A DNA stretch of 64,000 nt from IMG/VR virus record IMGVR_UViG_3300045988_075249, positions 64,001 through 128,000 of that record. One strand, written 5' to 3'. Both the position numbers and the translations under genes were made by a program. Positions 1 to 64,000 of this stretch are shown in pieces. The notes below the pieces were generated by a model. It searched no databases. It saw nothing but the letters and a program-made list of their open reading frames with translations, and was not told where the DNA came from. Positions within the stretch are counted from its first letter, which is position 1, and each line of letters starts with the position of its first letter. The stretch is from a virus.

Positions 1-3
1 AAG

Positions 4-549
4 ATGAAGATAGTAGCATTAATGGGTGAAGCAGGAAGCGGTAAGGATACTATTCTCCATAGAATTATGGAGAAGTATCCTTCCTATTTCAATGAAATTA
101 TTAGTTGTACGACTCGACCTCCTAGGCAGGGAGAGAAAGAAGGAGTTAATTATCACTTCTTATCCGTTGAAGATTTTATTAGAAAAATCTTAAATGGAGA
201 TATGCTAGAGGCTACTGAATTTAATGGTTGGCACTATGGAACAGATAGTCAAAGTCTAACAATAGATAAGATAAATATAGGAGTATTTAATCCAGAAGGA
301 GTTAGATGCTTACAGGAAGATGAAAACATTGAACTGTATGTATTTTATGTGCGGGCCGCAGGTAAGTAGCGTCTTTTAAGATAGCTGAATAGAGAAGAAA
401 ATCCTGATGTAGACGAAATAATTAGAAGATACAAAGCGGATACAGAAGATTTTAGTTTTCTTAATGATATAAAATATATAACTCTTTAGAACAATACCTT
501 AGATGATATTGATATAGCTGTTGATACTATATTTGGACAATTCTATTAA
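4..549 (+). CDS. gmk: Guanylate kinase-like nucleoside monophosphate kinase. It contains 3 in-frame TAG codons and ends at TAA 547-549.
   Basis: Kinase motifs in the track ORF: P-loop GEAGSGKDT, TTRPPRQGE, ATEFNGWHYGT. The protein continues in frame past TAG at 367-369 and two further TAGs (..AAGK*RLLR*LNREENPDVDEII..YITL*NNTLDD..FGQFY) to TAA. Confidence 0.7.
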
Positions 550-605
550 ATAATTATATTAGAAATCACAAATATAGTGTTCAACAAAAAATATATTACA
601 AGGAG

Positions 606-2795
606 TTGTATTATATGTTACAAATAAAGAAAAGAAATGGTATAGTAGTTCCATTTGATAGAGAACGAATTATCAACGCTATCAATAAAGCCTTCATCGA
701 AGTAGATGGAGAATTATATGAAGATGATACTGCAAATGATATTGCAGATGAAATTAAGTATGCAGTAAAAACTTCTGACGATGTGGTTTCTGTAGAAAAA
801 ATTCAAGACATGGTGGAAGATTTTCTTATGAAGTCTGAGCGGAGAGACGTTGCTAAAGCATACATTAGATATAGATATAAAAGAGAAATTGCCAGAAAAG
901 GGCAAGACGATTTTATGAAAGCCTTTTCTGCCAAAGTGCAGGGTTCAGATATAGAGAATCAAAATGCTAATGTTGATGAAATGTCATTCGGCGGAAGAGT
1001 TGGTGCAGCTTCTGATTTGCAAATGAAGAAGTACGCTCTTGATTATCTTGTATCTAATAAATCACGCGCAAACCATGAGAATAATGAGATTTATATTCAT
1101 GACTTAAATGCTTATGCAGTAGGTATGCATAACTGTCTTTCTATTCCTTTTGATGATTTGCTTGCAAAAGGATTCAATACAAGACAAACTGATGTACGAC
1201 CAGCGGGTTCAGTAAATACAGCTTTTCAACTTGTTGCTGTAATCTTTCAGCTTCAAAGTTTACAGCAGTTTGGTGGCGTTTCTGCTACACATCTTGATTG
1301 GACTATGATTCCTTATGTAAGAAAAAGTTTCTATAAACATTATATGGATGGATTGACATATATCGAACAAGTCATTAGCATGGATGATAGATTAAACAAT
1401 CAACTGTCTATTGAAGATCCTATCTATAAGGAATTTAAAGGCGCATATTCATATGCTATCGCTATGACAGAAAAGGAAGTTCATCAAGCGGTTGAGGGAA
1501 TGTATCATAATCTAAATACTCTTCAATCTCGTTCCGGCAATCAACTTCCATTTACTTCTATTAACTATGGAACTTGTACTCTTCCAGAAGGAAGAATGGT
1601 TACTAAAGCTCTTCTGGAAGTCTCTATTGAAGGACTTGGTAGACTTCACAAGACTTCAATTTTCCCCTGTGGAATTTTCCAATGTATGAAAGGTGTAAAT
1701 AGGAAGCCTGGAGATCCAAATTACGATTTATTTAGATTAGCATTAAAGTCTACTGCCACTAGATTATATCCTAATTATGCTAATGTAGATTGGTCTGGCA
1801 ATGCCGGATATGATGTAAACGATCCAAGTACATATTTCTCTACAATGGGATGTAGAACTGCTAATGGATTCGATATTAACGGCTTAAAGCAACAGAAAGA
1901 CGGTAGAGGAAATATCTGTCCTGTTACTATTATAATGCCAACAATAGCAATGGAAGCTAATGGTGACGTAGAAACTTTTATGAAACTTTTAGATATTAAG
2001 ATCGAAGAAGCGAAAGATATGCTTCTTGAAAGATTTGAATATATCTGTGCGCAACCTGCGGATTCGGCAAAATTCATGTATGAAAATGGCTTAATGGCTG
2101 GATATGATGGAATTTCTACTCGAAGTGCTTTACAACATGGCACATTGAGTCTTGGGCAGATTGGATTGGCAGAAACTTTACAAATTCTTATTGGATGTGA
2201 TCATACTGAGCCAGAGGGCATGAAATTAGCAAAAAGAATAGAGCAGTTATTTAAAGATAGATGCGCAGAGTATAAAGAAAAATATAGACTTAATTTCGGA
2301 GTATATTATACTCCAGCCGAGAATCTTTGCTATACCTCTCTTAAAAAATTCCGCGATAAGTATGGTATCATTCCTAATGTAAGCGATAGAGAGTTCTTTA
2401 CTAATTCTATGCACGTACCAGTATGGCACCAACTCTCTCCATTTGATAAAATTGATATTGAAAGTCAATTAACTGGATATTCTTCTGCTGGTTGTATTAC
2501 TTATGTTGAGTTAGATACTGGCATGGAAAAGAATATTGATGCTATGGAGACATTAGTAAATTATGCTATGGATAAAGATATTCCATACTTTGCAATAAAT
2601 GTTCCATGTGACACCTGCCTAAATTGCGGATATACTGGCGAGTTTAATGATAAGTGCCCTCAGTGCGGTAGTAAAGAAATTCAACAGTTAAGAAGGGTAA
2701 CAGGCTATCTAACTGGTAACTACAAGACCGCCTTTAATAAAGGAAAGCAGGATGAAGTAAACAATAGAGTTAAACATGTGGGGTATATGGAATGA
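606..2795 (+). CDS. nrdD: Anaerobic ribonucleoside-triphosphate reductase, class III. No TAG codons.
   Basis: 729-aa ORF with a C-terminal Zn ribbon (CDTCLNCGYTGEFNDKCPQCGS) and the glycyl-radical region RRVTGYL. RBS aaggag upstream. Confidence 0.9.
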   Translation: MYYMLQIKKRNGIVVPFDRERIINAINKAFIEVDGELYEDDTANDIADEIKYAVKTSDDVVSVEKIQDMVEDFLMKSERRDVAKAYIRYRYKREIARKGQDDFMKAFSAKVQGSDIENQNANVDEMSFGGRVGAASDLQMKKYALDYLVSNKSRANHENNEIYIHDLNAYAVGMHNCLSIPFDDLLAKGFNTRQTDVRPAGSVNTAFQLVAVIFQLQSLQQFGGVSATHLDWTMIPYVRKSFYKHYMDGLTYIEQVISMDDRLNNQLSIEDPIYKEFKGAYSYAIAMTEKEVHQAVEGMYHNLNTLQSRSGNQLPFTSINYGTCTLPEGRMVTKALLEVSIEGLGRLHKTSIFPCGIFQCMKGVNRKPGDPNYDLFRLALKSTATRLYPNYANVDWSGNAGYDVNDPSTYFSTMGCRTANGFDINGLKQQKDGRGNICPVTIIMPTIAMEANGDVETFMKLLDIKIEEAKDMLLERFEYICAQPADSAKFMYENGLMAGYDGISTRSALQHGTLSLGQIGLAETLQILIGCDHTEPEGMKLAKRIEQLFKDRCAEYKEKYRLNFGVYYTPAENLCYTSLKKFRDKYGIIPNVSDREFFTNSMHVPVWHQLSPFDKIDIESQLTGYSSAGCITYVELDTGMEKNIDAMETLVNYAMDKDIPYFAINVPCDTCLNCGYTGEFNDKCPQCGSKEIQQLRRVTGYLTGNYKTAFNKGKQDEVNNRVKHVGYME

Positions 2796-3265
2796 AGTAT
2801 GCAGGTATTATAAAAAATGACTTTGCTGCTGTTCCCGGAGTATCCTTGAGTTTCTTTACTCAAGGATGCCCCCATAGATGTAAAGGGTGTCATAATCAAG
2901 AGACTTGGGATTTTGATAGTGGCAGAGAATTTACTCATGAAACTCTTAATTCAATCTTAGAAGGGCTAACTGCTAATGGAATTAAGAGAACTTTATGTAT
3001 AATGGGCGGCGAACCATTATGTCCAGAAAATACATTTTTAACCCATCTAGTAATACAAACCGCAAAGGAGACAATTCCTGATTTGAAGGTTTATCTATGG
3101 ACTGGATACTTGTATGAAGATTTAAGAAAAACAACAGATACAGTTATTTAGAATATACTTCAATTAACTGATGTGCTAATTGATGGGCCATATATTGAAA
3201 ATGAAAGAGATATTACAGAGCCTCTAAGGGGTAGTCGTAATTAGAAGATAATCTACCTAAAATGA
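2792..3265 (+). CDS. nrdG: Anaerobic RNR activating protein (radical SAM). Two in-frame TAGs, ends at TGA 3263-3265.
   Basis: CPHRCKGCHN cluster. Reading through TAG at 3149 and 3242 gives the conserved NrdG C-terminus ..LRGSRN*KIIYLK, where * aligns with Q of the RGSxNQ(R/K)II motif. Confidence 0.85.
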
Positions 3266-3294
3266 TTTTCGTAAAAAGTATTTTTGGAGGAATA

Positions 3295-3804: not shown

Positions 3805-3841
3805 TTATGATATTATATTAAAAAGAAAAGGAGGGCTAGAT

Positions 3842-4449: not shown

Positions 4450-4450
4450 T

Positions 4451-4694: not shown

Positions 4695-5261
4695 ATGAGC
4701 GTATATTTCGAGAAAGTAAGTCGTTTTAATGACATTGATCTACCTATACCAACTCGCGCAACCGCAAATTCCGCAGGCTATGATTTTGTAGTTGCAGAAG
4801 ATGTCGTTCTTCCTCCAATGAATTTTTTAACTTCTAAGATTCAAGACCATGTTTTTGAAAAAAATGCTGACAAGGATTTTTATGGGTTCGTAGACCCATT
4901 TACTCTTGATGATATGGCTAATCTTACTAAAGAATTAAAATCCAAGATTACGCTAGTATCAACAGGAATGAAATGTCATTTAAATCCTGGGCAGTATTTA
5001 GAATTAAGCGTCCGCAGTTCTACTCCTCTTAAACACTGGATTATTTGCGGGAATAGCGTAGGTATTATTGATGCTGACTATTGCGATAATCCCGATAATG
5101 AAGGAGAGATTTTCTTTCAACTCGTTAATCTATCTCCTTTTGCTATCCAACTGAAGCGAGGAGATAAGATTGGTCAAGGTATTATTAAAAGCTATGGGAT
5201 TACAGATAATGATGCTGCGACTGGAGAAAGACTTGGCGGATTTGGAAGCACTTCTGTATGA
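4695..5261 (+). CDS. dut: dUTP diphosphatase. No TAG codons.
   Basis: dUTPase motifs: ANSAGYDF, GIIDADYCDNPDNEGE, RGDKIGQG, RLGGFGSTS. RBS ggagg plus ATG at 4695. Confidence 0.8.
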   Translation: MSVYFEKVSRFNDIDLPIPTRATANSAGYDFVVAEDVVLPPMNFLTSKIQDHVFEKNADKDFYGFVDPFTLDDMANLTKELKSKITLVSTGMKCHLNPGQYLELSVRSSTPLKHWIICGNSVGIIDADYCDNPDNEGEIFFQLVNLSPFAIQLKRGDKIGQGIIKSYGITDNDAATGERLGGFGSTSV

Positions 5262-5737
5262 GTAATTTATTATCATTAGACTAGAGCTCCAGAATCACGG
5301 GGTACGCGGTCTTTGAAGATAATAAGTTAAAAACATTTGGTAAATTTGTTGTCGAAGATAGTAATATAGATACTAGATTAGTAAAGATAAGACAAAAGAT
5401 AAAAGATCTTATTATCTAGTTTAATATAGATGAAGTCGTTTTTGAAGATATACAATAGCAAAATAATGTATCTAATAATGTATAGACCTTTAAAATTTTA
5501 GCGGAGGTCTATGGAGTTATTTCCGAATTATTAGAAGAAGAGAAAATACCTCATTCAACGATTTTATCTACTTCATGGAAATCTCTTCTTGGGATAAAGG
5601 GTCGCACTAGACCAGAATAGAAAAAAAATGCCCAGGATTATGTGTTAAATAACTATGGTACAAAACCAACTCAAGATGAAAGTGATGCGGTTTGTATCGG
5701 CCTTGCGCATATAAAATAGAATTAGTGCGCTTGGTAA
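5258..5737 (+). CDS. ruvC: RuvC-like Holliday junction resolvase. 7 in-frame TAG codons, ends at TAA 5735-5737.
   Basis: No ORF in the track covers this stretch. Translating from ATG 5258 (ATGA overlap with dut) through TAG gives MSNLLSLD*SSRITGYAVFED..II*FNIDEVVFEDIQ*Q..CIGLAHIK*N*CAW. This matches RuvC motifs (GIDPGSRVTGYGV; ..IITQFQPD.. where * falls on Q). Confidence 0.75.
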
Positions 5738-9815: not shown

Positions 9816-10439
<624 letters not shown>

Positions 10440-11235: not shown

Positions 11236-11877
11236 TTAATTACTACTTCCACCACCGCCAGAAGTAATTGTAGCAGAGTCAATAATTTTATATGCTATAA
11301 CTTGACTATTATTATTTATCTGTATAGCACCTAATGCTTTGTATGCAGACTAAGGAGTAATTTTAAGTCCTGAAGGAGAGCCGCCGTTTATAGTTAAAAT
11401 ACTATTTTTTATTACTTTATAATTATTTTTCTACACTACCCATACTGACATTGGTGCATTTTCATGTTCTATTATTACTGTGCATCCACTTATGCCTGAT
11501 AATGATTCAAATGTAATATCTACTGTTTCTATTGGAGTTTCAGTCTCAATTTGACTTATATTTTCTGCCATCTATTGAAAGCTATCGGTCGCCGCAGTTT
11601 CTATTCCCTTGTCAGTGACTGCGGTCGCTATTAGGGTTTTGCCCTCACTGACATCTGTAAAAAGTTCATCTATGGCCTCCTAAACATTGGTAGCGGCCAT
11701 GCTCGAGGTGCTATTGTTATACTCTATCAACGATGCAGTTAGACTTTCATTTTCTTCTTCATCAAATTCGATAGTGTAAGGTCCAACTCCCAAAGATTCT
11801 CCCATTTCTGCAATACCACCGCCCGGCACAGTAATGGCATCTTTGTTCTTAACCTATCCAGTTAAAATACATTCCAT
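11236..11877 (-). CDS. Hypothetical virion or fibre-associated protein. ~6 TAGs.
   Basis: RBS aaaggag plus ATG 11877. 642 nt = 214 codons to TAA 11236-11238. Confidence 0.5.
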
Positions 11878-11995
11878 GAAAATTTCTCCTTTCATTTTTA
11901 AAAAAGTACACTTTACTGAACTTGGTCAAACATATATAATCAATCTATACTCTTTTTCAAGTATATTTGAAAAGAGTAAGATACTCACTTTTGGG

Positions 11996-14568: not shown

Positions 14569-14667
14569 GGTCCCGTAACTACAACAACTCGAACAACGTT
14601 TGCAATGTCAACAACGATGGATCTGCGAACAACAACAACTACAACAACAGCAACGGGCTCGCGCCGG
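14569..14667 (+). repeat. DGR template repeat (TR), A-rich, encoding a run of Asn-like AAC codons.
   Basis: Identical to VR except at adenines. Lies between avd and the RT gene, as in canonical DGRs. Confidence 0.85.
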
Positions 14668-49649: not shown

Positions 49650-51152
49650 TTATGACGAACTTTCTTGATTAGCTATTGTCTTATCAGACTTTTCGCCATC
49701 TTCCTTCTTTGGCCTTCCGGCCCCATTACTGTTAGTTGAACTTGTCTATTTATTCTAAGAATTAGTATTAGATGACTAATTATTATTACCCAAATCTTTT
49801 CCGCTTCTGGTATTAGAACTCATAGGAGGAATCATAATCTCCGCCAAGTTCAATACTTCATTCTCAAATGTTAATGTAGCTAAGATGCTTGATTGAGAAT
49901 GCCCTAAAGCGATTTGTGGCAACATCTTAGAATATCCTAACTGAGCGTGTTCTTTATACAACTTTGATAATTCTTTATAATTAAACTATGTTGTCTCTAA
50001 CATCTCAGCTCTAAATTCATAATGATTCTTGCGGCTAAATTTTTCTACCACTCTATTTAGTAATTCTGTAAACATAAGAGGTATATCTCTAACGCTAGAT
50101 TCATCAGTCAATATAGAATTTGTTACAGCAATATTTCCATCGGCATTAAACAAATTATGAGTTACACCTGAATTGTTGTAAACTGTACGTTCAACCTTTT
50201 CCAAATCGTCGGTTGTTATATTGGAGTTATTGTCTTTTGTATCAATTTTTTCAATGTCCGCAAAAGTTGTCAATACATCTACTCCAATAGCTCTTTTAAG
50301 CATAGCAACCGCGTTATTATGAATATCTCTAGCTTCATCAACGTCAAAAATTAAATCACCATTCTTATCAAGAGGCAACTTCTAAATGATGATTTTCAAT
50401 AGTTGCTACATTGTTTTTTGACGATCCAATTCTTGCGCCTAATCCAAATCAATAATAGAAGGAATAACTCCCGCAAGGAAAGGAAATTCATTATCGTTTA
50501 AGCTAAACTTAACTGAAACACTAGGATCTAGAGGATACCAAACAGTTGTACTCCCCGGATAATCCCCCTTTAATTTCCCCTACTTATAAAGAATATAAGC
50601 CTTCTATATATCTTGAGGAAAAATCTTTAATATCTGAACCTTATACTGCGGATTTGGGAAATAAACATCAAAAAATTCAAGATTTAATTCAACAATAGGG
50701 TTAGGGCCTTGGAAATATCTATTGCGACAATATGAAGCAGGTAGTTTCTAAATGGCAAACCTATCCCCGAAGTCAATAATTATGCCATAATATGCCCCTT
50801 CTTTGATAATATCTAATGATATATTGCCAAACATTCTCTTTATATTAGATTTATCAAGATAAAGCAATACTTTAGAAAAGTCTTTTAATAGCTTCTCCTT
50901 ATCTTTCTGCGCGCTTACGGTATATGGGGTTATATACCAATCAAATCTGTATAAGAAAGCTAGGTATTTACATAATCTGTAATATATACCACTACTTTCA
51001 TAGAAATAATTAGAAATCTCTCTTAGAGTTCTATAATCATGCTTATAGATAGCATTTAATACGAACTTCTTATCTCCATAATTTCTATTTATTTTCTTAT
51101 ATGTACCTAGATTAATAAGCGCATCATCTACCGAGCGAAGCCCCACCCGCAT
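49650..51152 (-). CDS. Portal protein. ~4 TAGs.
   Basis: Track ORFs 50748..51152, 49986..50378 and 49776..49961 are in one frame. 1503 nt = 501 codons to TAA 49650-49652. Confidence 0.65.
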
Positions 51153-51654: not shown

Positions 51655-53400
51655 TCACACCTCGCTCATAAACATAAAGTCTGAAAATCTTCTACTTTTA
51701 CGCTTGCGTTTACTATCTTCTTCCTATTTAATATAATACAACCCATATTCAAGCGCAGAGAATTTATCTTTAGGCACGGATTTATTTGCTTGTTTCAAAA
51801 TAATATTCACGCCTTCATTTTCTTCTCGCAAATTCAGCATTTCTTCTCTTAATATAGAAGTTAAAGTGAACGGTTTTAAATATTCTGCCCGTTCTTCTGG
51901 TTTCATAGCCTAACCTTTTTTAGTACCAAGCAATTTATTTCTTGCGACTTTTTCATCAATCAAAAATCTAAGTTTTCCTGCTCTTAATTGTGTCTAAACA
52001 TTACTATGTGCCTCGGTATTAATAGGGGCGTTAGCCTTAATTTCATAAATAGCATCATATTCCGTATTCTCTGTTCTAAATCGTTTATACTCACCATCTT
52101 CATCATTGGCCACACCAAAGTCAGGAAAAACTTCATTGGTATCAGGCACTATCTAAGGCTTAACCATATAATCCATCAATCCGGCGCCAAGGCCATTACC
52201 GTCGATTACAATAATCTTAGCCTTATAATTATAATATAATCTCTTTAACTTAATTGCCTAGTCTTCAAAATGTTCATCGTCCATAGTATATATATTTACC
52301 AAAGACTTTATAGCAGGTCCTTGTGACTAAGGAGTTACCTTAAAGACACAAACAACAGATTGACATTTCTTTCTACCTACATCAACAGAAAGAACATAAT
52401 AAGCCTGTGCAGAAGATCTTCCAGACGATTCATATTCAGGCTAAAGAAGTTTTCTACTTCTATCAAAAGCATCTCCATTAAAGAAAGCATCTTCAACAGT
52501 TCCACTCCACTTAGATTCATACTCTCTATCGAATGAAGCTTCATTAAAAGTACCGTCCTATTTTAGTTCCTATACGAAATTGCGGGATTGCAATCCTACT
52601 AGTACAGGAATTCTCCATGTTCCGCCCATAACAATACTCTTTTCTGGTTCTAATATCATGCGTACAAGGAGAGTAATAAGTTTATTGTAGGGGAACGTAT
52701 TCTTCCATCCCGCAGTAGTAACATAAATCTAGGATTTATTGAGTGTTTCCTCTTCATGAACAGAACCATCTAAACATCTTCTATCAACGTTCATCAAGGG
52801 AATTAAAACTTCGTTTAGAATATCTCCATCTACGCCGACGCACTCCTCAATAAGTCCGCCATGTCTACGTTTACCACGAGAAGATTCTCTAGCTGCTACG
52901 TTATCAAAGTAGGAGCCGTTTTTGAAGATATATTTACAATAATCTTTTCCTTCCTATGTCTTACCTCGTCTCCAATCAATTTCTCTTTGGAGCGCGGGGA
53001 TTGCATTACATATTTCCTAGACTTTTTCTTTAGCAATTCCAGCTGCTTGTTCCTTTCCTCCAGAAGTAATGAATAACTTACATCCGGGATATAAAATACA
53101 TCTACACATAAGCACCGTTACAGAAAGAAATGACTTAGAATAAGCACGGGGGAATACCATGTATACATACTTATACCGCATTGCGGCCCGCAAGAAAACT
53201 CTCTAGTAAAAATAAAAGTTAATTTCTTTTTTCCTAGTTTCATCCCCACCAGTCTGCAAGAAATCAATAAACATATCTGGATATTCTCTCCAAAAAGCTA
53301 TATACTATCTTGCCGCGGGGATTATGGCTCGAACTCTTTCTTCTGAAAGACCAATCTTTTTATTATTATTCGAGAGGTTTAATAAATCTTTTAATGCCAT
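51655..53400 (-). CDS. terL: Terminase large subunit. ~15 TAGs.
   Basis: RBS aaggagg plus ATG 53400. 1746 nt = 582 codons to TGA 51655-51657. ATPase-like N-terminal domain and RNaseH-like nuclease region (..VLSVDVGRKK..KAKIIVIDGNGLGAGLMDY..). Confidence 0.7.
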
Positions 53401-54575
53401 TACTAAACCTCCTTTAGTATGCTATTTAGCATCTCTTCATCCTTATCTCTTTCGGATTCTTTCATATCCTCATACTCTTGATAATCTTCTTCTGTTAATT
53501 CTGGATGTTCATAATTAAATAAATCTTCATCCTCATCGCTATCCTCAACATCAATATTCGCTTCGCGCTCTTTATCTTTCACGATTTCTCTCAAAGAAGC
53601 CTCAATCATATTACCAAGATTCATTTCTTCTGTAACTAGAGTATGCGTATATTGCTACAAATCCTAAAGAGTTCTATCTACTTTATCCTATGGCCCATCA
53701 GTATAATATCTAGGAATAAATCCTTCTTTCTCACATAATGCTACCAGCTCGCCAATAGAATCAACAAATTCGCCGGATTCTCCCTTATTCTAAGCGGCAG
53801 TGAACTTTCCGCTTTTCATTAAGCTATCATAGGCCTTCTACATTTTCTAAAAGCCATCAATATCTCCAGCATCAATTAACTAATTCGCTTTCAAACTAGT
53901 CTTGCATACCATAATAAGAGTATCTTTATGTCCAGCTCCCTAAATATCATATGAACTCATCATATCCTTATAGAGCTACTCCATTCGCACTCTTTCTTCC
54001 CAAGAATAACCTCGACCCCATTTAAGACGAAGCATTAATTTATCTTCTTCTGTTAGCTAATCGCTAAAGTCATCTTCTTCCTCTTCTGGATCTTGATATT
54101 CTGGAGTTCCAACTGGAGCCTAAACATCTTCTAACTCCTTTGGTTTTGGCGGAGTTCTATCAATAGCTAATTGCTCTTGAATTTCATCCTCTGTAAATCC
54201 TTGAGCTTTCATATTAAGAACTTTTTTCTCAGTTGAATCCTTCTCTAGTGCCTCTGTATCTGCCCAAGTATATTTATTCCATTGTTTTAATTTCATTTTG
54301 GATAAATAGCGTCCAATAATAGTTAATCCAGTAACCTTTTTTGGATCTTTTCCATACCTCTCTAATAAGCCATTCCACTCTTCTTTGATGTATGGAACAT
54401 CAATTTCCTACAAAATCCACTTATATGTCTCTGGATTCCAGTTGTCTACGTGCATCGTAAGACATTTCTTACAGACATCCATCTTTCCATCTGGAGGATA
54501 TTTTTCTATATTCTTTGATGTATAAAACTATGTATCATCCATAGTTTTACCACACTTTTTACAATAATGACTCAC
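53400..54575 (-). CDS. Putative DNA-packaging / terminase small subunit candidate: N-terminal double CxxC Zn ribbon, highly acidic C-terminus. ~14 TAGs.
   Basis: GTG 54575 (RBS aagagg). 1176 nt = 392 codons to TAA 53400-53402, overlapping the terL ATG. The terminase assignment rests on position and charge only. Confidence 0.35.
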
Positions 54576-55754: not shown

Positions 55755-56093
55755 ATGTTTTTCGATACACCCTATTCTGAATTACCAAAACGAGCATAGT
55801 ATTACTTTAACATTTTAATTATAAGCATAGCAGTATAGCCAGAAGTTCTAACAGACATACTTGGACATAAAAACACTGTTGACTTATGGGATGTTCAAAA
55901 TATCAATAATGCAAGACCAACGGCTTTGCATATTTATGCTTCATATAATTTAGATAGAGATTCTGATTATGAAATATGTTGTATCCCACATTAGGTTTTA
56001 GAAATAACGCCTAATAACAAAATATCATTCTATGATATGATTGATTATGATACTGATGATCCATGGGGGCTAGAACCAGATGCAATAGATTAA
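55755..56093 (+). CDS. Hypothetical protein. 3 TAGs.
   Basis: RBS gggagg plus ATG 55755. 339 nt to TAA 56091-56093. Confidence 0.45.
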
Positions 56094-56871
56094 CATAAAA
56101 GAATATTTTAAACAATAGAAAGATGAATTGCGGCAGTCCGATGTCAAGCCATCATTGACCATAATTGATGCAACTAACGGGGATGCCGGAAATTAGATTT
56201 ATATATAGAAAAAAGTAGACGACTTTGATGAATTAGGATGGCCAGTAAGCGTGATTAAAGTTCCAGAACACTGGACTCCCGCAGATTTAAATAATTACAT
56301 AAATAGTATAGATACTGATTGTATTATAGCACAAATGCCACTAAGAGATTCATTGAGTTCTTTTTCTATTGATGTAATTCCTACGATAAAAGACTGCGAC
56401 GGTTTAACTTCTTCTACTCTTGTTTTACCGGCAACGGTAAGAGGAATAGTAGACTATCTTGATGACTGTGGTTTTAAGTATGAAGGTAAAAGTGCTTTAA
56501 TATTAGGTAGAAGTAATATAGTTGGTAAGCCAATGGCGAAAGAGTTGTTGGCGAGAAATATGACTGTATCTATCTGTCACAGTAAAACAAATGTAAATGC
56601 GAAGCTTTATTTAGCAAGAATAGCAGATTTAGTAGTATCCGCAGTTGGAGATTTTACTTTGACAAGAGAGGCTTGCCCTCACGCTATTGTTGTTGATGTT
56701 GGTATTCGTAGAAATTAGGCGAATTTTATTCAAGGCGATTTTGTTGAACTTGAAGATATTGCAAAGAGAAATGAAGTGTGGTCAACTCCTGTGCCCGGAG
56801 GGGTGGGATTATTGACTAGATTGGGGTTGATGAAAAATTGCTTATAGTTAGCGAAACAGGCGCGAAGATAA
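56080..56871 (+). CDS. folD: Bifunctional methylenetetrahydrofolate dehydrogenase/cyclohydrolase. ~7 in-frame TAGs.
   Basis: Track ORF 56251..56718 is the C-terminal domain (..GRSNIVGKPMA..VVDVGI..). Read-through gives the N-terminus MQ*INIKEYFKQ*KDEL..AGN*IYI*KK.. and C-terminus ..VPGGVGLLT..KNCL*LAK. These align with E. coli FolD AQQ, ASQIY and TLQAC, with * on Q each time. Confidence 0.8.
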
Positions 56872-57230: not shown

Positions 57231-57375
57231 TTATTGTTATCTTAGATTGCATCAATAGTATGATCCAATTAGATGCGATGATTCATGCGAATATGCAAAA
57301 GTAATAAAAGAAAACAAAGAGTTAAAGTAGAAGATCGAGGAATTAAAAACTCAACACACTTTATTTGAAAAATAA
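57214..57375 (+). CDS. Small Cys-rich protein (53 aa). 2 TAGs.
   Basis: ATG 57214. 162 nt to TAA 57373-57375. Confidence 0.3.
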
Positions 57376-57433
57376 AATAAGACAATTATTTAATTTTGCC
57401 CAACGGCGTTTTTATAAAAGGAGGCCGCGATGA

Positions 57434-57958
57434 CAAAACAAGAGCGCAATCAAGGCACGAGCGCATTATGAAGATATTAAAACTAGACTTGCCGCAAACA
57501 CTAAATTATCTATCGAGCGCACATATGTATATAGTCCAGATTCTTTTACACAGCATGAATCCGGCAATCAGAAACCAGCTTTTACTCTAACAGATATGGA
57601 TAGCGTATTCAACTTATCTGACAATGGTAGAACAGCAATTCTTAACTATGCCAGTTATAAAAGTCCTGGTGGTTTCTTCCTAGAAGGTAGTCCTGCGCAT
57701 AGATACCAGAGTGTGAGTAAAAGCGAGAATGATAGAGTTCTTGAAAATCGAATTCACTTTATGTATCAGATTGCTGAGGAAAACGGTGTGGAAAATCTAG
57801 TCGCGGGAGCTTGGGGTTGTGGAGTTTTTATGCAGGATCCGTACACGGTCGCAACCTTACTCATAGGCGCAGCACGCAATTATAATATTCCAAATATTTA
57901 TTTTGCAATTCCCAGAATTTTAGAGCATAAACAGTTAATTATAGCTAGAAAAGATTGA
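57434..57958 (+). CDS. Macro-domain protein (TIGR02452/DUF2263-like). N-terminal region is out of frame with its RBS-associated ATG at 57430.
   Basis: Track ORF 57596..57958 has 54 further protein-like in-frame codons upstream to TGA 57431-57433. RBS aaaggagg plus ATG 57430 is in the +1 frame and stops after 13 codons. One fewer A in the A4 run at 57435-57438 would fuse them. Confidence 0.5.
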   Translation, partial: QNKSAIKARAHYEDIKTRLAANTKLSIERTYVYSPDSFTQHESGNQKPAFTLTDMDSVFNLSDNGRTAILNYASYKSPGGFFLEGSPAHRYQSVSKSENDRVLENRIHFMYQIAEENGVENLVAGAWGCGVFMQDPYTVATLLIGAARNYNIPNIYFAIPRILEHKQLIIARKD

Positions 57959-58451
57959 AAAGATTCTTTGGGGAAGCAAAGAAGTGGTTCGGGAAAGAGA
58001 TGGCATTATGGATATAAGTCTCGATACAGACTTATTCCATGATTGGAGAAACTAAAGTTGTTTGCCGCGCGAAGAATAAAGATTACTTTTTGATTTATGA
58101 TGAGCTGTCCTGAAGGGACTGGATTTAGACCAATGGAAGCTGAGGAGATTTATACCATTAAGGGATATTTTTGCCCTAACTGTAAAGGTTAAAAGTTTAG
58201 CCTTTCATCTTTTTTTCGTTATTGAGATTGAAAGTGCGATTTAGATTTTGAAATGGCGTGGCAGAACGAATTTGCGAAAAAATTTCCAGTTTTTCCCAAA
58301 ATACACCCTCCCCTTTCACATGGTAAAGTGCTGAAGTGTAGTTGGCCTCTTTCGCTCGCTAAAGTATGAAAGTAAAAAGCCCCGCCCTAAAGGAATACGC
58401 GCGCGTAAAGAATTTGTGCAAAAGAGAGAGAAAGAAATTTCAAAAAAACTA

Positions 58452-58480
58452 TTGACAAGTGGGCGTTTTGGTGGTAAACT
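58452..58480 (+). promoter_or_regulatory. Sigma70-like promoter TTGACA-17-TAAACT overlapping the palindrome CTGGACTTGTCCAG (58479-58492).
   Basis: Seen in sequence. Confidence 0.45.
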
Positions 58481-58551
58481 GGACTTGTCCAGTAGAGGAC
58501 AGGGCAAAACTCAATGTACCTTGAAAATCAAAAATTTTTCAAAAAAAGGTA

Positions 58552-58580
58552 TTGACAAGCCCACTAAAGTCTGATACAAT
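58552..58580 (+). promoter_or_regulatory. Sigma70 consensus-like promoter TTGACA-17-TACAAT upstream of gene 58633.
   Basis: Seen in sequence. Followed by the conserved leader ..gaaagggagtaaaagaaaATG. Confidence 0.55.
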
Positions 58581-58632
58581 ACAGACAGAACAAAAGAGAA
58601 CCACACCACAAAAAGAAAGGGAGTAAAAGAAA

Positions 58633-59010
58633 ATGAAAAAAATCGACTTTACCAACGATGACAGAAAAGTCATCATGGAATACCTGGCCGCTAAACAGGC
58701 AGTAGCGGCGGCGGAGGTCGCAGAGAAAGCGGCTAAGGCTAAAGCGAAAGAGCTTTTCACCCGGTTAGGGAAAGAGTTCAAGACCACAGATAAGACCTCT
58801 TATCTGTACGGCACAGTCCAGATAAAGGGCGCCGCTTATGCGGTGGTATATAAAGAGACTACTGCTAAAGGAGCGATAGACTGGAAAGCCTACGCTATGG
58901 CGTTAGGTGGAACAAAGGCAGAGGCGGAGCAATACCGCAAGCGTCCGACGGTCAGAACCTCTCTTGATTGGGCAACGAAAGACCAGCAAAAAGAACTCAA
59001 TCAGCAGTAG
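58633..59010 (+). CDS. Hypothetical early protein (125 aa). Ends at TAG 59008-59010, directly followed by a terminator hairpin. Read-through would reach TGA 59089-59091.
   Basis: Track ORF. Strong RBS. Confidence 0.55.
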   Translation: MKKIDFTNDDRKVIMEYLAAKQAVAAAEVAEKAAKAKAKELFTRLGKEFKTTDKTSYLYGTVQIKGAAYAVVYKETTAKGAIDWKAYAMALGGTKAEAEQYRKRPTVRTSLDWATKDQQKELNQQ

Positions 59011-59011
59011 T

Positions 59012-59050
59012 TTATAAACCCTGCCTTGCAAAACCCAAGGCAAGGCAGGG
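59012..59050 (+). terminator. Hairpin ccctgccttg caaaaccc aaggcaaggcaggg.
   Basis: 12-bp stem seen in sequence. Confidence 0.5.
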
Positions 59051-59080
59051 TTATAATAATCAAAAGAAAGAAGGCTGTAT

Positions 59081-59231
59081 TATGAGGTATCAGTTGCAGG
59101 TTTTAGTGGGTGACAAAATGCGATACTATGAGCCGTCTACTGTTGCACACGCAAGATGGAGAGTAGACCATGAGCTTGTCAATCCTGACTATTGGATTGT
59201 AGACCTGTCTACCGGCGAAGCTATCAAGTAA
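59081..59231 (+). CDS. Hypothetical small protein (50 aa).
   Basis: ATG 59081 inside track ORF 58968..59231. Confidence 0.4.
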
Positions 59232-59286
59232 CCATATACCACAAGAAGCTGACCTAACGGCTATACGGGGAGAAAGGATAAAAGAT

Positions 59287-59673
59287 ATGTCTAACTTCAT
59301 CAAGTATTACACCAATCCCACCTTTAATAAGCCTGAGTTCGTGCGTGTTCTCCGTTACTCCATGAATGTGAAGGCGGCCGCTGTGGATGATGGTATCATC
59401 CTTGACTTAGACGCTTTTAATGCTATCTCTAAGGCCGTCATGCCACATTGGGCCTTTATCAATGCACGGTATATCAACAGCAAGCTTCACACTCGTCCTG
59501 CCTCTCTTGACGAGTATAAGGCCGCTCTGGATAAGGACACCACAGAACAGCTTTATATCATTCGGGATAACTATTATAATGAGTATGACAGGGTAACTGC
59601 CAAAGAATGGGATAGGCTTAATGCCGAAATCCCTGGACGGTATGACCTTCTGGGGAAGGAGCCTGCGGTATGA
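59287..59673 (+). CDS. Hypothetical protein (128 aa).
   Basis: Track ORF. Confidence 0.5.
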   Translation: MSNFIKYYTNPTFNKPEFVRVLRYSMNVKAAAVDDGIILDLDAFNAISKAVMPHWAFINARYINSKLHTRPASLDEYKAALDKDTTEQLYIIRDNYYNEYDRVTAKEWDRLNAEIPGRYDLLGKEPAV

Positions 59674-59880
59674 GAGTGCTACGGTATATAGGAGGCGGCC
59701 TTTGCGCCGCTCTCCTTCTCTGGATTGCTTTGAGCTGGGCTGACATAGTAGCAGATAACAACTATCCAAATCCACAGCATAGTGAGTATAACTTCTTTAC
59801 TGTGATGTTTTAATATTCTATCCGGTAATCTGCACAAAGATTGCCGGATATTTTTGTGCACTTTCCCATATTGACTTTTC

Positions 59881-59925
59881 GCCGGGCCGCCAGCGTGCGC
59901 CGCGGCCCGAATTTTTGTTTGTTCG
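59881..59925 (+). terminator. GC-rich terminator (cgggccgc ..gcgcc.. gcggcccg plus aatttttg).
   Basis: One of four paralogous GC-rich hairpin terminators (59881, 61461, 62858, 63766). Confidence 0.5.
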
Positions 59926-59991
59926 GCAGTTTCAACAATTATATGGCCAAAAGTTTGTGCAATCTGCCGAGAATTTTTCTCCCGAAATCGC

Positions 59992-60020
59992 TTGACATTC
60001 CTTTGTGGGTATGGTATATT
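59992..60020 (+). promoter_or_regulatory. Promoter TTGACA-17-TATATT.
   Basis: Paralogous to the promoter at 61573-61601 (shared ..aaatcgcttgac..ggtata.. context). Confidence 0.5.
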
Positions 60021-60086
60021 ATACTTGTCCAGAGAGACAGACCACAAAAAGAATTTGAAAGGAAGTAAAAGAAATGGTGTGACGTT

Positions 60087-60305
60087 GTGATTTTGTTCCG
60101 GCAATACTCTTTCTGTCTGGAAGAGGATGCGGCTATTCAGGTAATCGACAGCAATACCGGCGCACATTTCCGGTTTGACAAGGAATGGAAGCTCCAGCTC
60201 GGCGGTGACTTTTATGGCGATGACCTCAGCGCCCTGTTCAAGAAGCAGGTGACTGAGATTGAAATGAGAGAAGAAGGTGGCGTTAATATCTACATTAACG
60301 CATAA
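60087..60305 (+). CDS. Hypothetical small protein. Start uncertain (GTG 60087; ATG 60074 is out of frame).
   Basis: Track ORF. Confidence 0.4.
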   Translation: MILFRQYSFCLEEDAAIQVIDSNTGAHFRFDKEWKLQLGGDFYGDDLSALFKKQVTEIEMREEGGVNIYINA

Positions 60306-60359
60306 GAAACCTGCGGGAGTGGAGGTCTATGACTTCCACTCCCCATGATAAAAAATTCT

Positions 60360-60596
60360 ATGGAGGTCGATTTCCGCATGGGAAAATATGTAGTTTCGTT
60401 TAACTCTCTTGAGGATCGAGCAAGTTTCGAGTGCTTAATTAGTCAGATGGGCGCGGACTGGTCTTTATCGACTATTGATAATCTTCGCGGTGCGTGGTTG
60501 TTGATAACTCCGCATAAGTCCAGTGCAGCAGAACATCTTGTCGGATTCTTTACAGAAAAGGGGATTATCAATGACTATCGAGAGACTTCCGCGTGA
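60360..60596 (+). CDS. Hypothetical small protein.
   Basis: Track ORF 60345..60596. ATG 60360 is better placed relative to the RBS. Confidence 0.4.
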   Translation: MEVDFRMGKYVVSFNSLEDRASFECLISQMGADWSLSTIDNLRGAWLLITPHKSSAAEHLVGFFTEKGIINDYRETSA

Positions 60597-60702
60597 ATAT
60601 CCTATTGGTTCCACCGTTTGGACTAATAAGGGATATGGAACAGTTTTGGTAAGATTGGGGAAATATCACCTTGTCTGGTTGCAGAGGCTGGGGCTGGCAT
60701 AA
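60571..60702 (+). CDS. Hypothetical 43-aa protein, followed by terminator ~60685-60725.
   Basis: ATG 60571 overlaps the upstream gene. Hairpin gggctggcataagtcagccc plus T8. Confidence 0.3.
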   Translation: MTIERLPREYPIGSTVWTNKGYGTVLVRLGKYHLVWLQRLGLA

Positions 60703-60976
60703 GTCAGCCCTTGCTTTTTTTAAAAAAATATTCTATAATATATATAGAAAAACAAAGAAAGGAGTTTTCTAATGACCTTAGAAGTGCTGAAAGCTCTTGC
60801 GGTCATTCTGGAGTTCTGTTTGAACTAGGATTCTTGTAAGAATTGTCCTATGGCTCAGTTCCGCCAGAAAATGCCTTGCGAGTGGTAATTATTCCCTCCG
60901 ATTGTTACAAATCGGCGATTCCCGTGATGGAGTCGTTTTTCGCACGAACCTAGGTCACTAGAATTTATTTATCAAA

Positions 60977-61213
60977 ATGCAAGAAACTACTTTCTCAAGG
61001 AAATTGGATTCAAGTGGGCGCATCATGATTCCCGTAAGACTACGAGAGTAGATGGGCCTTGTTTCTGGTCAAGAATATTATTTCACTACTATGGTAAAGG
61101 ATGGCAGAAAATATATTTGTATCGACTGTGGCTCCGTTGACAATACTTCTCTTGAAGAAGCTATGCGAATTATACAAGCAAATGGAATGAAAATTGTTGA
61201 AAGTACCGATTGA
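60977..61213 (+). CDS. AbrB/MazE/SpoVT-type swapped-hairpin DNA-binding protein. One in-frame TAG.
   Basis: ..RKLDSSGRIMIPVRLRE*MGLVSGQEYYF.. matches the AbrB-N fold. 237 nt ATG 60977 to TGA 61211-61213. Confidence 0.5.
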
Positions 61214-61460
61214 CTTCCCGAAATTCTTATGTTAAAATTAAGTTATCAAAAGAAAGGAAGTTGAGAGATATGTATGAATTTGAGATTTTGCTTGAAAATG
61301 GCTCGACCGACAATATCTCTGGTTATTCCTATGAAGATGCTCTTTTCCGGTCTCGACGTAAACCTGAAGAGGTTGTAAAAGTTTTAAATCGAGAATATGT
61401 AGATTGAGATTTTCCTCCCAAAATGGGAGGAATTTCTTTTCCAATTCAAAATATATTGTT

Positions 61461-61505
61461 CAGCCGGCCGCGCATGAGCGCAGCGGCCGGAATTTTTTGT
61501 CAAGA
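61461..61505 (+). terminator. GC-rich terminator (ccggccgcgc atgagc gcagcggccgg plus aattttttg).
   Basis: Seen in sequence. Confidence 0.5.
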
Positions 61506-61572
61506 GGCAATTTGCACAATTTTTGGATCAGTTTATTGGTGAAATTGACGAGAGGAAATTTCCCAAAATCGC

Positions 61573-61601
61573 TTGACTTTCCCCTCCCGTTCTGGTATAC
61601 T
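61573..61601 (+). promoter_or_regulatory. Promoter TTGACT-17-TATACT.
   Basis: Seen in sequence. Conserved leader before ATG 61654. Confidence 0.5.
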
Positions 61602-61653
61602 TAGACCATCAAGAGGGGAGAACAAAAGCCCTCAAGAAAGGGAGTAAAAGAAA

Positions 61654-61893
61654 ATGAAAAGCTATGTGGTTATGGCTGATAATCGTGAGAAGATTATCTG
61701 TGTATCTGATGATCTGCGGTTAGCTCGTGGCGCGGGCTGGGACTGGCTGAAAAAGCAATATAATCCCGATAACTGGCAGGATATTCTGGAGGATATGGAC
61801 TACGAAAGCGAAAACGACCTGCAGCATGATATGCTCCTTGGGGCCTGCTGGGAAGATTTCGACATGGAAATTATCGAGGTGGAGAGGGTGTAA
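61654..61893 (+). CDS. Hypothetical small acidic protein.
   Basis: Track ORF. RBS aagggag. Confidence 0.5.
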   Translation: MKSYVVMADNREKIICVSDDLRLARGAGWDWLKKQYNPDNWQDILEDMDYESENDLQHDMLLGACWEDFDMEIIEVERV

Positions 61894-61920
61894 TCCCTCT
61901 CCACCATAGGAGAAACAAAT

Positions 61921-62064
61921 ATGACAACTTTTATCATAATCATTCTTGCCATTTGCCTAACGATCCAGTATGTAGTGGCTCTGGTAAAAGAGCATTTCTG
62001 GCTTGCTATATTCTTCACGGCTGAAATCGCAATGTTCGGATATATTATAAATACTCCGATGTAA
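61921..62064 (+). CDS. Small hydrophobic (membrane) peptide, 47 aa.
   Basis: RBS ataggag plus ATG 61921. Not in the track (<60 aa). Confidence 0.35.
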   Translation: MTTFIIIILAICLTIQYVVALVKEHFWLAIFFTAEIAMFGYIINTPM

Positions 62065-62068
62065 AGGG

Positions 62069-62097
62069 TATTGACAAACCTAGCCCTTTATGATATA
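62069..62097 (+). promoter_or_regulatory. Promoter TTGACA-17-TATAAT.
   Basis: Seen in sequence. Confidence 0.55.
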
Positions 62098-62148
62098 ATA
62101 ACACTATCAAGAGAAGGAAAACTCTATAAACCAGAAAGGAAGCATATT

Positions 62149-62391
62149 ATGACTACTCTGCCTAAGATGACCCAGGAGGATAAGGATGGCCTGATTGCCC
62201 TTCATATGGCGATACGTACGGTAGACCGCCATTCGGCTGATTCAGCTTTGGTTCAATCTCTGGGGAAGTTCTTGCTTGAGGATGCCTGTACTCCAGATGA
62301 TGCGGCCGACATTTTGAAGGCAGTCTTTGACGAGGAGGCCGACCGCGTATCCAGTGAGGTTGACATTGACGCCCTTCTGTCTATGCTGTAA
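62149..62391 (+). CDS. Hypothetical small protein.
   Basis: RBS agaaaggaag plus ATG 62149 inside track ORF 62071..62391. Confidence 0.45.
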   Translation: MTTLPKMTQEDKDGLIALHMAIRTVDRHSADSALVQSLGKFLLEDACTPDDAADILKAVFDEEADRVSSEVDIDALLSML

Positions 62392-62453
62392 ACTGGATAA
62401 AGGCGCCTGGGCAACTAGGCGCCTACCATAAAATTTAGAAAGGAAGTATAAAG

Positions 62454-62810
62454 ATGAAAGTTATCGGCATCACTCGGAGGATGGATGATCTGGGACGCGT
62501 GGTTATCCCCAAGGAGGTGCGCCAGTCTCTCGGAATTAACGAGGGCGATTTTCTGGAGATTGTAGGTACTGACCGGGGCCTGCTTATGCAGAAATGCGGC
62601 GAAGCCTATGGGAATGAACCCGTCCCGAAGGGAGTGGAAACCGAAGAAAAGGACAAGATATTTGTTTTCCGGGATCAGGATTACATGGTTCATCTGGTTT
62701 CACTTTCCAAAAAGGCAGAGGAACTTTGCAGGTGGCTTGAAGAGCTGGGCCTGCTGGATGAAGATATGTGGTGGGAGGCTTGTAGCGACAATGCAGAGGA
62801 AAATTTTTAA
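62454..62810 (+). CDS. AbrB-family transcriptional regulator.
   Basis: ..ITRRMDDLGRVVIPKEVRQSLGINEGDFLEI.. AbrB-N domain. Confidence 0.6.
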   Translation: MKVIGITRRMDDLGRVVIPKEVRQSLGINEGDFLEIVGTDRGLLMQKCGEAYGNEPVPKGVETEEKDKIFVFRDQDYMVHLVSLSKKAEELCRWLEELGLLDEDMWWEACSDNAEENF

Positions 62811-62818
62811 AAGATTTG

Positions 62819-62895
62819 CCCCTTTCGGGGCATTTCTTTTTGTCTTTTTTCGCGGGCGGACCGCGCAGGATGGGCGCGGTCCGATTTTTTCTTCT
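62819..62895 (+). terminator. Tandem terminators (gcccc tttc ggggc plus T-run; cggaccgcgc aggatgg gcgcggtccg plus T-run).
   Basis: Seen in sequence. Confidence 0.55.
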
Positions 62896-62985
62896 ATTGT
62901 AATGTTGCACAATTTTTGACTTGAAATCTTGTGCAAAATGTCATCTTGCAATTATCCTTAAATTATGGTATTATTAGTACAGAAA
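62885..62985 (+). repeat. ~100-bp promoter/operator module, copy A. It holds the TTGCACAA-N16-TTGTGCAA inverted repeat (62905-62912 / 62929-62936) and promoter TTGCAA-17-TATTAT (62946-62974).
   Basis: ~90% identical to copy B at 63798-63893. Confidence 0.6.
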
Positions 62986-63001
62986 GAAGGAGGGACACTA
63001 A

Positions 63002-63226
63002 ATGAAACCTTCAAAGTTTATTCGGCCTAATGAGTGTTTAACTGTGGCTGAAATCTACCGCCGTCAATTTGGTGGTACTACCACCACAGAGAATTATGGG
63101 GTCTATATGCAAGCTATTCTTTTGCGCGACCCTCTAATTTATGTGGATTATACGTCAATGCCTTATAAGGTATATCGGCATAAAAATTTCTTTGAAAAAC
63201 TTGTTGACAAGATAGGCAACAGGTAG
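63002..63226 (+). CDS. Hypothetical small protein.
   Basis: Track ORF. RBS gaaggaggg. Confidence 0.45.
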   Translation: MKPSKFIRPNECLTVAEIYRRQFGGTTTTENYGVYMQAILLRDPLIYVDYTSMPYKVYRHKNFFEKLVDKIGNR

Positions 63227-63254
63227 TATAATAAAACAAAAGGAGGTTATATAT

Positions 63255-63719
63255 ATGATAACTAAAAAAATGCTCTGCTTTGATATGGACGGGACAATTG
63301 CAGATCTATACGCAGTCCCCAACTGGCTTGAAAAACTCCGCGATGGAGACCCCAGCCCATTCCGAGACGCTGCCCCCATGTGGGATATGAACGCCCTCCG
63401 AAATGCGCTTCTAAACGCAATTAGTAACGGGTGGGAGGTTCGAGTTATTACATGGTTGCCCCCTGAAAGCCCCCCTGAATATAAGAAAGCAGTCACAACC
63501 GCCAAAAAGGAATGGCTTGCAAGGCATAAATTTCCGGCCCATAAATGCCATTGTGTGGCGTATGGAACAACTAAAGCTAAATGCGTATTCCGCAGTTTTT
63601 ATGAACCGCCGTTCATTCTCTTTGATGATAACGACAAAATTAGAAACGGCTGGCATTTAGGGGATACCGTAGACCCCCAAACTACAAACATTATTGAATA
63701 TATCAACAATCTGGACTAA
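63255..63719 (+). CDS. HAD-superfamily 5'(3')-deoxyribonucleotidase (NT5C-like).
   Basis: ..FDMDGTIAD.. HAD motif I. Overall NT5C-like sequence. RBS aaaggagg. Confidence 0.55.
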   Translation: MITKKMLCFDMDGTIADLYAVPNWLEKLRDGDPSPFRDAAPMWDMNALRNALLNAISNGWEVRVITWLPPESPPEYKKAVTTAKKEWLARHKFPAHKCHCVAYGTTKAKCVFRSFYEPPFILFDDNDKIRNGWHLGDTVDPQTTNIIEYINNLD

Positions 63720-63721
63720 AT

Positions 63722-63805
63722 AAAAGCGGGGTGAAAATCCCCGCTTTTATTTTTTTTATAACTTGGCCGGCCCGCGCACAAGCGCCGCGGGCCGAATTTT
63801 TCTTC
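63722..63805 (+). terminator. Tandem terminators (agcgggg tgaaaat ccccgct plus T-run; cggcccgcg cacaagcgc cgcgggccg plus T-run).
   Basis: Seen in sequence. Confidence 0.55.
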
Positions 63806-63893
63806 TATTGTAATGTTGCACAATTTTCAAGCAGAAATCTTGTGCAAAATGCCATCTTGCAATTATCCCGAAACTATGGTATTATTATCATGT
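63798..63893 (+). repeat. Promoter/operator module, copy B (TTGCACAA 63816-63823, TTGTGCAA 63840-63847, promoter TTGCAA-17-TATTAT 63857-63885).
   Basis: Paralog of copy A. Confidence 0.6.
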
Positions 63894-64000
63894 CAGGAGG
63901 GAGAGGCCAAGAAATCAAGAGGTCGCGAACTCTTAGAAAGTAGAGGAAGCAAAGAGAAAATAACTAAATTCCGATTAGCTATCGGGAGGATTAAGTTAAA

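Follow-up and report, generated by a model that had tools for sequence, protein, structure and literature searches.

We report that in the DNA stretch analysed here (positions 64,001 to 128,000 of the IMG/VR virus record IMGVR_UViG_3300045988_075249; 64,000 nt, 35.6% G+C, hereafter the window), which is part of a tailed-phage genome of ~146 kb, TAA and TGA are the sole stop codons and TAG is a sense codon. Comparative sequence analysis further shows TAG to stand for glutamine, as in genetic code 15. The overall explanation that we consider very probable is an SPbeta-like tailed phage of ~146 kb that reads TAG as Gln by means of its own amber-suppressor tRNA with the anticodon CUA (tRNA(CUA)) and keeps this codon out of abundant or early proteins.

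To evaluate the decoding of the window, its coverage by stop-to-stop open reading frames (ORFs) of at least 300 nt was computed with each stop codon in turn set to sense. Coverage rose from 42% under the standard code to 96% with TAG as sense, and the longest ORF grew from 2,271 to 8,715 nt (followed by ORFs of 3,966 and 2,832 nt), whereas the controls with TGA or TAA as sense reached 52% and 79%, respectively, with a longest ORF of ~2.3 kb in both; a gain of this kind was obtained with TAG only. The same TAG-dependent gain was seen in 30 of 30 related loci fetched via the capsid gene, which fall into five groups of 97, 81, 76, 65 and 55% capsid identity (A97 to E55). Gene statistics below refer to the 56 genes of the code-15 gene set that lie left of 57.3 kb; calls to the right were kept out because our greedy gene caller sometimes takes antisense ORFs (as at 1105-2793 of L125; L-numbers denote fetched related loci from a walk along related IMG/VR and metagenome contigs). 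In-frame TAG codons occur in 42 of these 56 genes (75%; 366 codons in total), and the terminators are TAA (n = 45) or TGA (n = 11), with no other. TAG positions are uniform along the genes (Kolmogorov-Smirnov test, p = 0.12), as expected of sense codons and not of leaky terminators.

These results confirm two claims of an earlier sequence-only reading of the window, namely that TAG is sense in most of the element and that genes are broken by TAG alone, never by TAA or TGA. Its gene lengths likewise proved exact for the tape measure (30572-39271, minus strand; 8,700 nt, 2,899 codons, 102 TAG), a fibre-like gene (26606-30520, minus; 3,915 nt, 25 TAG), the 929-aa distal-tail or "tail-tip" protein (22584-25373, minus; 2,790 nt, 27 TAG) and the large terminase TerL (51655-53400, minus; 1,746 nt, 14 TAG). 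Several protein families are matched in single stretches that cross TAG codons: guanylate kinase (1-549, plus strand, cut at the window start; Pfam PF00625 over residues 2-176, 3 TAG), the NrdG activase (2792-3265, plus; Pfam Fer4_12 over residues 15-154 of 157, 2 TAG), a RuvC-like resolvase (5258-5737, plus; Pfam RuvC over residues 5-151, 7 TAG), a reverse transcriptase (14979-16196, plus; Pfam RVT_1, 6 TAG), FolD (56080-56871, plus; Pfam THF_DHG_CYH and THF_DHG_CYH_C, 6 TAG, or 7 if the start is at 56047) and the portal protein (49650-51152, minus; phrog_2739 of the PHROG families, E = 5e-80, one stretch over residues 34-499, 10 TAG). No convincing case of TAG as a stop was found in the early region at 57-64 kb, where TAG/TAA exchanges appeared only in probable non-genes. 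At the 3′ end of the minus-strand gene 53400-54542 (positions 53400-53405), a TAG stands directly before a TAA and could either encode a final Gln residue or itself terminate the gene.

Three kinds of evidence point to Gln as the residue, as the sequence-only reading had thought probable: exchange of codons among relatives, statistics of the residues that face TAG in a phage with the standard code, and conserved motifs. First, in orthologs with an identity of 95% or more, 117 different TAG sites of the window could be aligned, of which 8 vary, each to CAA or CAG; at 80-95% identity, a Gln codon was among the alternatives at 31 of 46 varying TAG sites, and in no case did TAA or TGA stand opposite a window TAG site in the relatives. 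Second, we compared the window with EF1 (MF001358), a cultured Enterococcus phage that uses the standard code and has at least 22 orthologs in common with the window. Q stood opposite 24 of the 122 TAG sites aligned (19.7%, 4.7-fold background), to be set beside 21.1% for the window's CAA/CAG codons and 2-8% for its other residues, and Q was the best residue for TAG both by BLOSUM sum and by empirical likelihood (23.5 log units above Glu). Third, the TAG of RGSRN-TAG-KII in the C-terminal GSxNQ motif of NrdG (3242-3244) lies opposite the Q of GSDNQ in EF1; in RuvC, LD-TAG-S lies opposite LDQA and PE-TAG-KKNAQ opposite IEQKRNAQ, again in EF1; and for FolD, two of the three structures compared (PDB) have ASQ(T/V)Y where the window has GN-TAG-IY (TAG at 56194), the remaining FolD TAGs falling on variable columns. 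Of the motif assignments made previously, those of NrdG GSxNQ and the FolD SQxY site therefore held, and FolD "AQQ" and "TLQAC" could not be located. A homolog search with FolD was set aside because its best 120 matches were all FolDs of the recoded clade, whose translations may already assume Q; structures from PDB and the standard-code EF1 were used for this reason. Counting TAG, Gln makes up 4.6% of residues, compared with 2.6% without it.

TAG is used heavily and unevenly. It accounts for 43% of Gln-equivalent codons (366 TAG) and 2% of all codons, and is the commonest Gln codon (361 TAG, 353 CAA, 124 CAG); the count of 361 takes the tape measure from its first ATG and that of 366 from its corrected start, a GTG with AGGAGG ahead of it and AAAGGAGG as the preceding sequence. 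Within the late block, TAG reaches 50% of Gln codons, with a maximum of 79% in single genes. Five late genes carry none at all: those of the major capsid protein (YonB family; 46607-47659, minus; 13 CAA/CAG; chance of zero TAG, 1e-4) and the major tail (tube) protein (41470-42864, minus; 15 CAA/CAG; 3e-5), a gene at 47679-48368 (4e-3), and those at 46009-46545 and 39382-39912, for which few Gln codons leave the absence not significant. The capsid and major tail proteins were identified through annotated homologs in Bacillus phages and through the YonB Pfam family (PF27364), with a match to phrog_2729 for the tail protein. Alignment with the relatives shows this pattern to be conserved in the clade, in that the five genes are TAG-free or almost so in all five groups (down to 55% identity), their neighbours carrying TAG. 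The major tail protein has zero TAG throughout and the capsid zero in groups B81 to E55; the only stray TAGs are in the 97% group, whose capsid orthologs have a mean of 0.5, and in the 65% group, whose orthologs of 46009-46545 have a mean of 0.3. TAG is also missing from the genes for NrdD (anaerobic ribonucleotide reductase; 615-2795, plus; 31 CAA/CAG) and gyrase, and DNA polymerase III alpha has 1 TAG versus 47 CAA/CAG; on the relatives' contigs, the replication module that lies upstream of the window is largely devoid of it. The lineage of the window is the most TAG-rich of its clade, as seen in TerL with 14 TAG versus 1-3 in the more distant groups.

A candidate decoder was found downstream. 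In sister lineages, an array of 25-30 tRNAs, with 25-28 counted along the contigs walked, begins ~15 kb past the right end of the window (for example, L159 5731-16914; L158-L161), and a tRNA(CUA) of 75-76 nt stands at its far end, ~35 kb beyond the window (L163 995-1069, L173 and L174), flanked by tRNA-Ser(UGA) on one side and tRNA-Leu(CAA)/tRNA-Cys on the other. A tRNA(CUA) was present in all sister lineages from which the syntenic spot could be obtained, and tRNA(CUA) genes also occur in L120, L121, L133, L220 and L231-L234. Scores from the Rfam tRNA model are 60.2 bits, for the 75-76-nt tRNA, and 57.9 bits. The 75-76-nt tRNA combines a U1-U72 mismatch with G73, its acceptor stem equals that of the phage tRNA-Gln(UUG), which has the same G73, at 11 of 14 positions, and its identity to the 72-nt Sup-CTA reported for phage phAss-1 (OQ749652) is 83-86%. 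Synteny in all sampled sister lineages leads us to infer that the window's own species carries this tRNA as well. When its DUF2828 neighbour gene was used as a link to that species, none of the returned contigs could be tied to it. Release-factor manipulation, which the sequence-only reading had also entertained, found no support: a regular-expression search, a motif test only, returned no ORF with the GGQ motif in the fetched loci, ~140 kb of related genomes with a small gap between L161 and L163.

Under the explanation that we favour, the phage would supply its own tRNA(CUA), a putative tRNA-Gln derivative encoded at the far end of the array; host enzymes would charge it with Gln, and the charged suppressor would outcompete host release factor 1, such that genes containing TAG are read through. 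TAG would then be a slow, suppressor-dependent codon excluded from the proteins needed most or earliest, a view that fits its graded use (half of late Gln codons, rare in replication genes). Charging with Gln, competition with release factor 1 and any regulatory meaning of TAG use are inferred steps. Several observations weigh against parts of this explanation. No tRNA was found in the window, nor in ~10 kb to its left or ~5 kb to its right, and the predicted suppressor, which the sequence-only reading had expected elsewhere in the genome, was encountered in sister lineages only, the lineage with this short form being ~84-85% identical to the window at the nucleotide level within the structural region. 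The overall similarity of tRNA(CUA) to other phage tRNAs is not discriminating and does not single out a tRNA-Gln parent, to which solely the acceptor stem and the discriminator base point. The support for TAG as Gln is all at the level of sequence. Finally, a division into early standard-code and late recoded genes is unclean, with TAG in RuvC (7), guanylate kinase (3), a RecJ-like gene (9) and polymerase III alpha (1); because RuvC, guanylate kinase and the RecJ-like gene are TAG-rich, such a split fits only partly, and avoidance of TAG in the most abundant proteins fits better.

A dedicated suppressor would be dispensable in this species if TAG were a near-cognate codon of the phage tRNA-Gln(CUG)/(UUG), read by way of a G-U mispair at codon position 1. 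Adjacent genes for tRNA-Gln(UUG) and tRNA-Gln(CUG) do exist in the array of close relatives, and the tRNA(CUA) was retrieved from sister lineages only; yet its presence at each syntenic spot fetched, together with a gene of 102 TAG codons that inefficient readthrough would hardly complete, makes this an improbable account.

The clade also encodes CUA tRNAs of a second form, 88-91 nt long with a variable arm of ~20 nt and G73 (L120 19124-19214, L133 4632-4721, L231 8407-8497 and phAss-1 62445-62532). A long variable arm and G73 are also features of tRNA-Ser, and these tRNAs are one reason to consider that TAG might specify another amino acid (Glu, Lys, Tyr, Ser or pyrrolysine); another is the label "Pyl" given to CUA tRNAs by ARAGORN, although that label derives from the anticodon alone. 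Such a meaning is highly improbable given that all 8 varying sites in close relatives turn to CAA/CAG and that, against EF1, Q is best, with Glu trailing by 23.5 log-likelihood units and no enrichment of Ser or Tyr. In the lineages that have the long-arm tRNA, TAG sites are few, and they lie opposite CAA/CAG for the most part and in no case opposite a Ser codon. Pyrrolysine is further opposed by the Gln substitution pattern, by the canonical cloverleaf of the CUA tRNAs and by a TAG frequency (2% of codons) far above sparse use. The clade may keep two structurally distinct Gln amber suppressors, a normal form of 72-76 nt and a long-arm form of 88-91 nt, the latter of which could have its own recognition or protection role. 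A search of viral contigs with the exact pattern of the long suppressor matched 3 contigs, none of close lineage, and low-threshold and intron-mode ARAGORN runs on the array yielded false positives only (for example, a poorly folding 94-nt "tRNA-Asn(att)"). On a less likely reading, TAG may throttle the level of expression, beyond acting as a timing switch, and the second, long suppressor may represent a new class of tRNA-Gln derivative; the throttle idea stems from the (almost) TAG-free state, across 97-55% identity, of the genes for NrdD, gyrase and the capsid and major tail proteins, the last two being those required in most copies.

A host that itself uses code 15, with the phage merely mirroring it, is a shade less credible again. 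The hint as to the host is limited to binning of phage-sized contigs (91% capsid identity) with Oscillospiraceae and Eubacterium metagenome-assembled genomes, which leaves room for this idea and weakly supports a Clostridia host. Against it stand the clade's own tRNA(CUA), the strictly TAG-free key genes, which make sense only if TAG decoding is conditional, and the growth of the related EF1 on a standard-code Enterococcus. To our knowledge, no bacterium reads TAG as Gln, and the host is probably a Clostridia bacterium with the standard code. Lastly, that the TAGs are sequencing errors or assembly errors (the latter named by the sequence-only reading among its grounds for rejection) or mark decaying prophage pseudogenes, as the fragmented look under code 11 might hint, can be dismissed: interruptions are by TAG alone and never by TAA or TGA, independent same-species assemblies (L001, L002 and L006) are 99.3-99.7% identical over their shared 12 kb, TAG is retained at 109 of the 117 aligned sites (from a sister lineage of ~85% average nucleotide identity and other orthologs at least 95% identical), and the exact proteins recur in about 1,750-1,960 assembly blocks.

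The surroundings of the tRNA array and suppressor vary among the related loci. One array variant contains a transfer-messenger RNA (tmRNA) with the tag DNDYFENYLAA and two carry a 468-nt intron-like insertion in the tRNA at the tRNA-Asp position; the sites of these variant features are L159 12385-12700 and L114 16755-17299. A full-length ROOL RNA (Rfam RF03087, 362 bits) lies between tRNA-Gln(UUG) and tRNA-Gln(CUG) at L231 1701-2299. Beside the suppressor tRNA, one gene encodes a DUF2828 protein and another a product that contains a major-vault-protein shoulder domain; farther away follow genes for an RNA ligase and a Thg1-like protein as well as a kinase/phosphoesterase pair. The whole set (L163 2254-6627; L231 10001-14355; L125 1666-2940 and 8553-10564) looks like a tRNA repair or maintenance cluster. 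Next comes a NAD-salvage gene, whose product is predicted to be nicotinamide phosphoribosyltransferase-like.

The phage is widespread in human-gut metagenomes: its exact NrdD protein was retrieved from 1,748 assembly blocks and its exact capsid protein from about 1,960, on contigs of 143-148 kb; contigs of 290 kb appear to be two joined copies of the genome. In a public protein catalogue, TAG is already read through in the gene calls for contigs of the window species, and the clade was described as using code 15 in 2023 (PMC10607447), which renders doubtful the earlier statement that the recoding had not previously been noted for this sequence. A megablast of window positions 40-60 kb against a phage collection gave a sole match of 33 nt (53263-53295, inside TerL), identical to Enterococcus phages EF1, EF5 and VRE9. 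The best annotated matches were, in order, phAss-1, the EF1 group and SPbeta-like phages, and the YonB, YonD and YonG Pfam families are present. Judged by these matches, the window probably belongs to the wider phAss-1/EF1/SPbeta-like group. We place it outside the proposed genus Phassvirus (phAss-1, BK046881 and BK025033; ~80% or more nucleotide identity plus synteny), because no nucleotide match beyond the 33 nt was found in the 40-60 kb searched and because synteny around the suppressor differs.

Identification of the genes named above drew on further evidence. The tape measure and distal-tail genes are EF1 orthologs, and TerL has 58.6% identity to the EF1 ortholog segment. The stretch from 57300 to 64000 is probably an early regulatory region: it is richer in GC (0.42-0.44 versus ~0.34), consists of small plus-strand ORFs with long gaps, codes poorly under both codes and is the least conserved part among relatives (31-44% aligned). 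It has no Rfam match and contains AbrB/MazE-like genes at 60977-61213 and 62454-62810, the first of which encodes an AbrB/SpoVT-like small regulator (plus strand) with a single TAG (61049) inside the domain; relatives have CAA at that codon (6 loci).

Two further elements lie between positions 9816 and 16196. The first is a diversity-generating retroelement, in which a variable repeat (13846-13947), a template repeat (14569-14670) and the reverse transcriptase described above accompany a target gene at 12324-13961 (plus). The two 102-nt repeats differ almost only at template adenines, and the variable repeat is located at the C-terminus of the target, a Big_3 + DUF6273 protein. The second is a 370-bp segment that may be an invertible switch, bracketed by a 21-nt inverted repeat (11853-11873 and 12202-12222; 90% complementary). 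Within it lie a start codon and the 14 codons with which the coding sequence opens (MKGEIFMECILTG plus TAG), and this short exon is joined in the window orientation to a 219-aa gene (11236-11895, minus); on in silico inversion, it comes into frame with a 593-codon form of the retroelement target gene (plus). All three same-species contigs that align across the segment have it in the window orientation. At 1.4 kb from the segment lies a gene for a small serine recombinase of the invertase/resolvase type (9816-10439, minus; Pfam Resolvase, 5 TAG), which starts with a GTG at 10439 preceded by GAGGTG. Because the catalytic motif YARVSSRDQ is encoded ahead of the first ATG, the N-terminal part is missing from the public 158-aa call of this recombinase.

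Annotated with code 11, more than half of this phage would appear as fragments, and annotation pipelines must therefore test code 15. Recoding itself is a known phenomenon; what is new here is a very abundant and heavily recoded phage, which adds a Bacillota-type siphovirus to the known code-15 phages. It also provides a clean case, relevant to the question of why phages recode, in which the most abundant virion proteins are kept free of TAG.

Code 15 is established in phages (Borges et al., bioRxiv 10.1101/2021.08.26.457843; Peters et al. 2022, PMC9523058), and the nearest annotated phage, phAss-1, was described in 2023 as reading TAG as Gln, with Sup-CTA tRNAs but lacking a dedicated aminoacyl-tRNA synthetase (Babkin et al., PMC10607447). 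The group to which phAss-1 was assigned there includes EF1 and SPbeta-like phages as well; NCBI classes phAss-1 under "Caudoviricetes code 15 clade". Like the window's phage, phAss-1 is a human-gut phage (~136 kb) that uses TAG as Gln in its TerL, tape measure (~3,150 aa), portal and fibre genes, has NrdD/NrdG, DNA polymerase III alpha and NAD-salvage genes, and possesses a large tRNA set (36, including Sup-CTA), and its capsid and polymerase genes are reported to lack TAG (PMC10607447). It carries the 88-nt-class long-arm suppressor beside the normal 72-nt one. The differences are a capsid protein identity of only 51%, a suppressor placed beside NrdD as opposed to the end of the tRNA array in the window's sister lineages, and a lower TAG load (28% of phAss-1 ORFs versus 75% of genes in the window). 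The code-15 crAss-like, Lak and "gemstone" phages similarly employ TAG as Gln in standard-code hosts with the aid of suppressor tRNAs and concentrate recoding in structural and lysis genes, the Gln assignment having been shown by proteomics for crAss-like phages (PMC9523058; bioRxiv 10.1101/2021.08.26.457843); they are unrelated lineages with mostly Bacteroidota hosts, and some carry release-factor or synthetase genes, of which none was found here. The EF1 group of SPbeta-like siphoviruses shares with the window a collinear structural module as well as NrdD/NrdG, FolD, a tRNA cluster and DNA polymerase III alpha, and differs in its standard code, its cultivation on Enterococcus and protein identities of 23-59%. 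A bacterial counterpart of the proposed suppressor is E. coli supE, which derives from tRNA-Gln, has the anticodon CUA and places Gln at UAG. Whereas supE is a chromosomal point mutant that suppresses partially, the tRNA(CUA) of this clade is phage-borne, has a U-U mismatch at 1-72 and would serve hundreds of codons.

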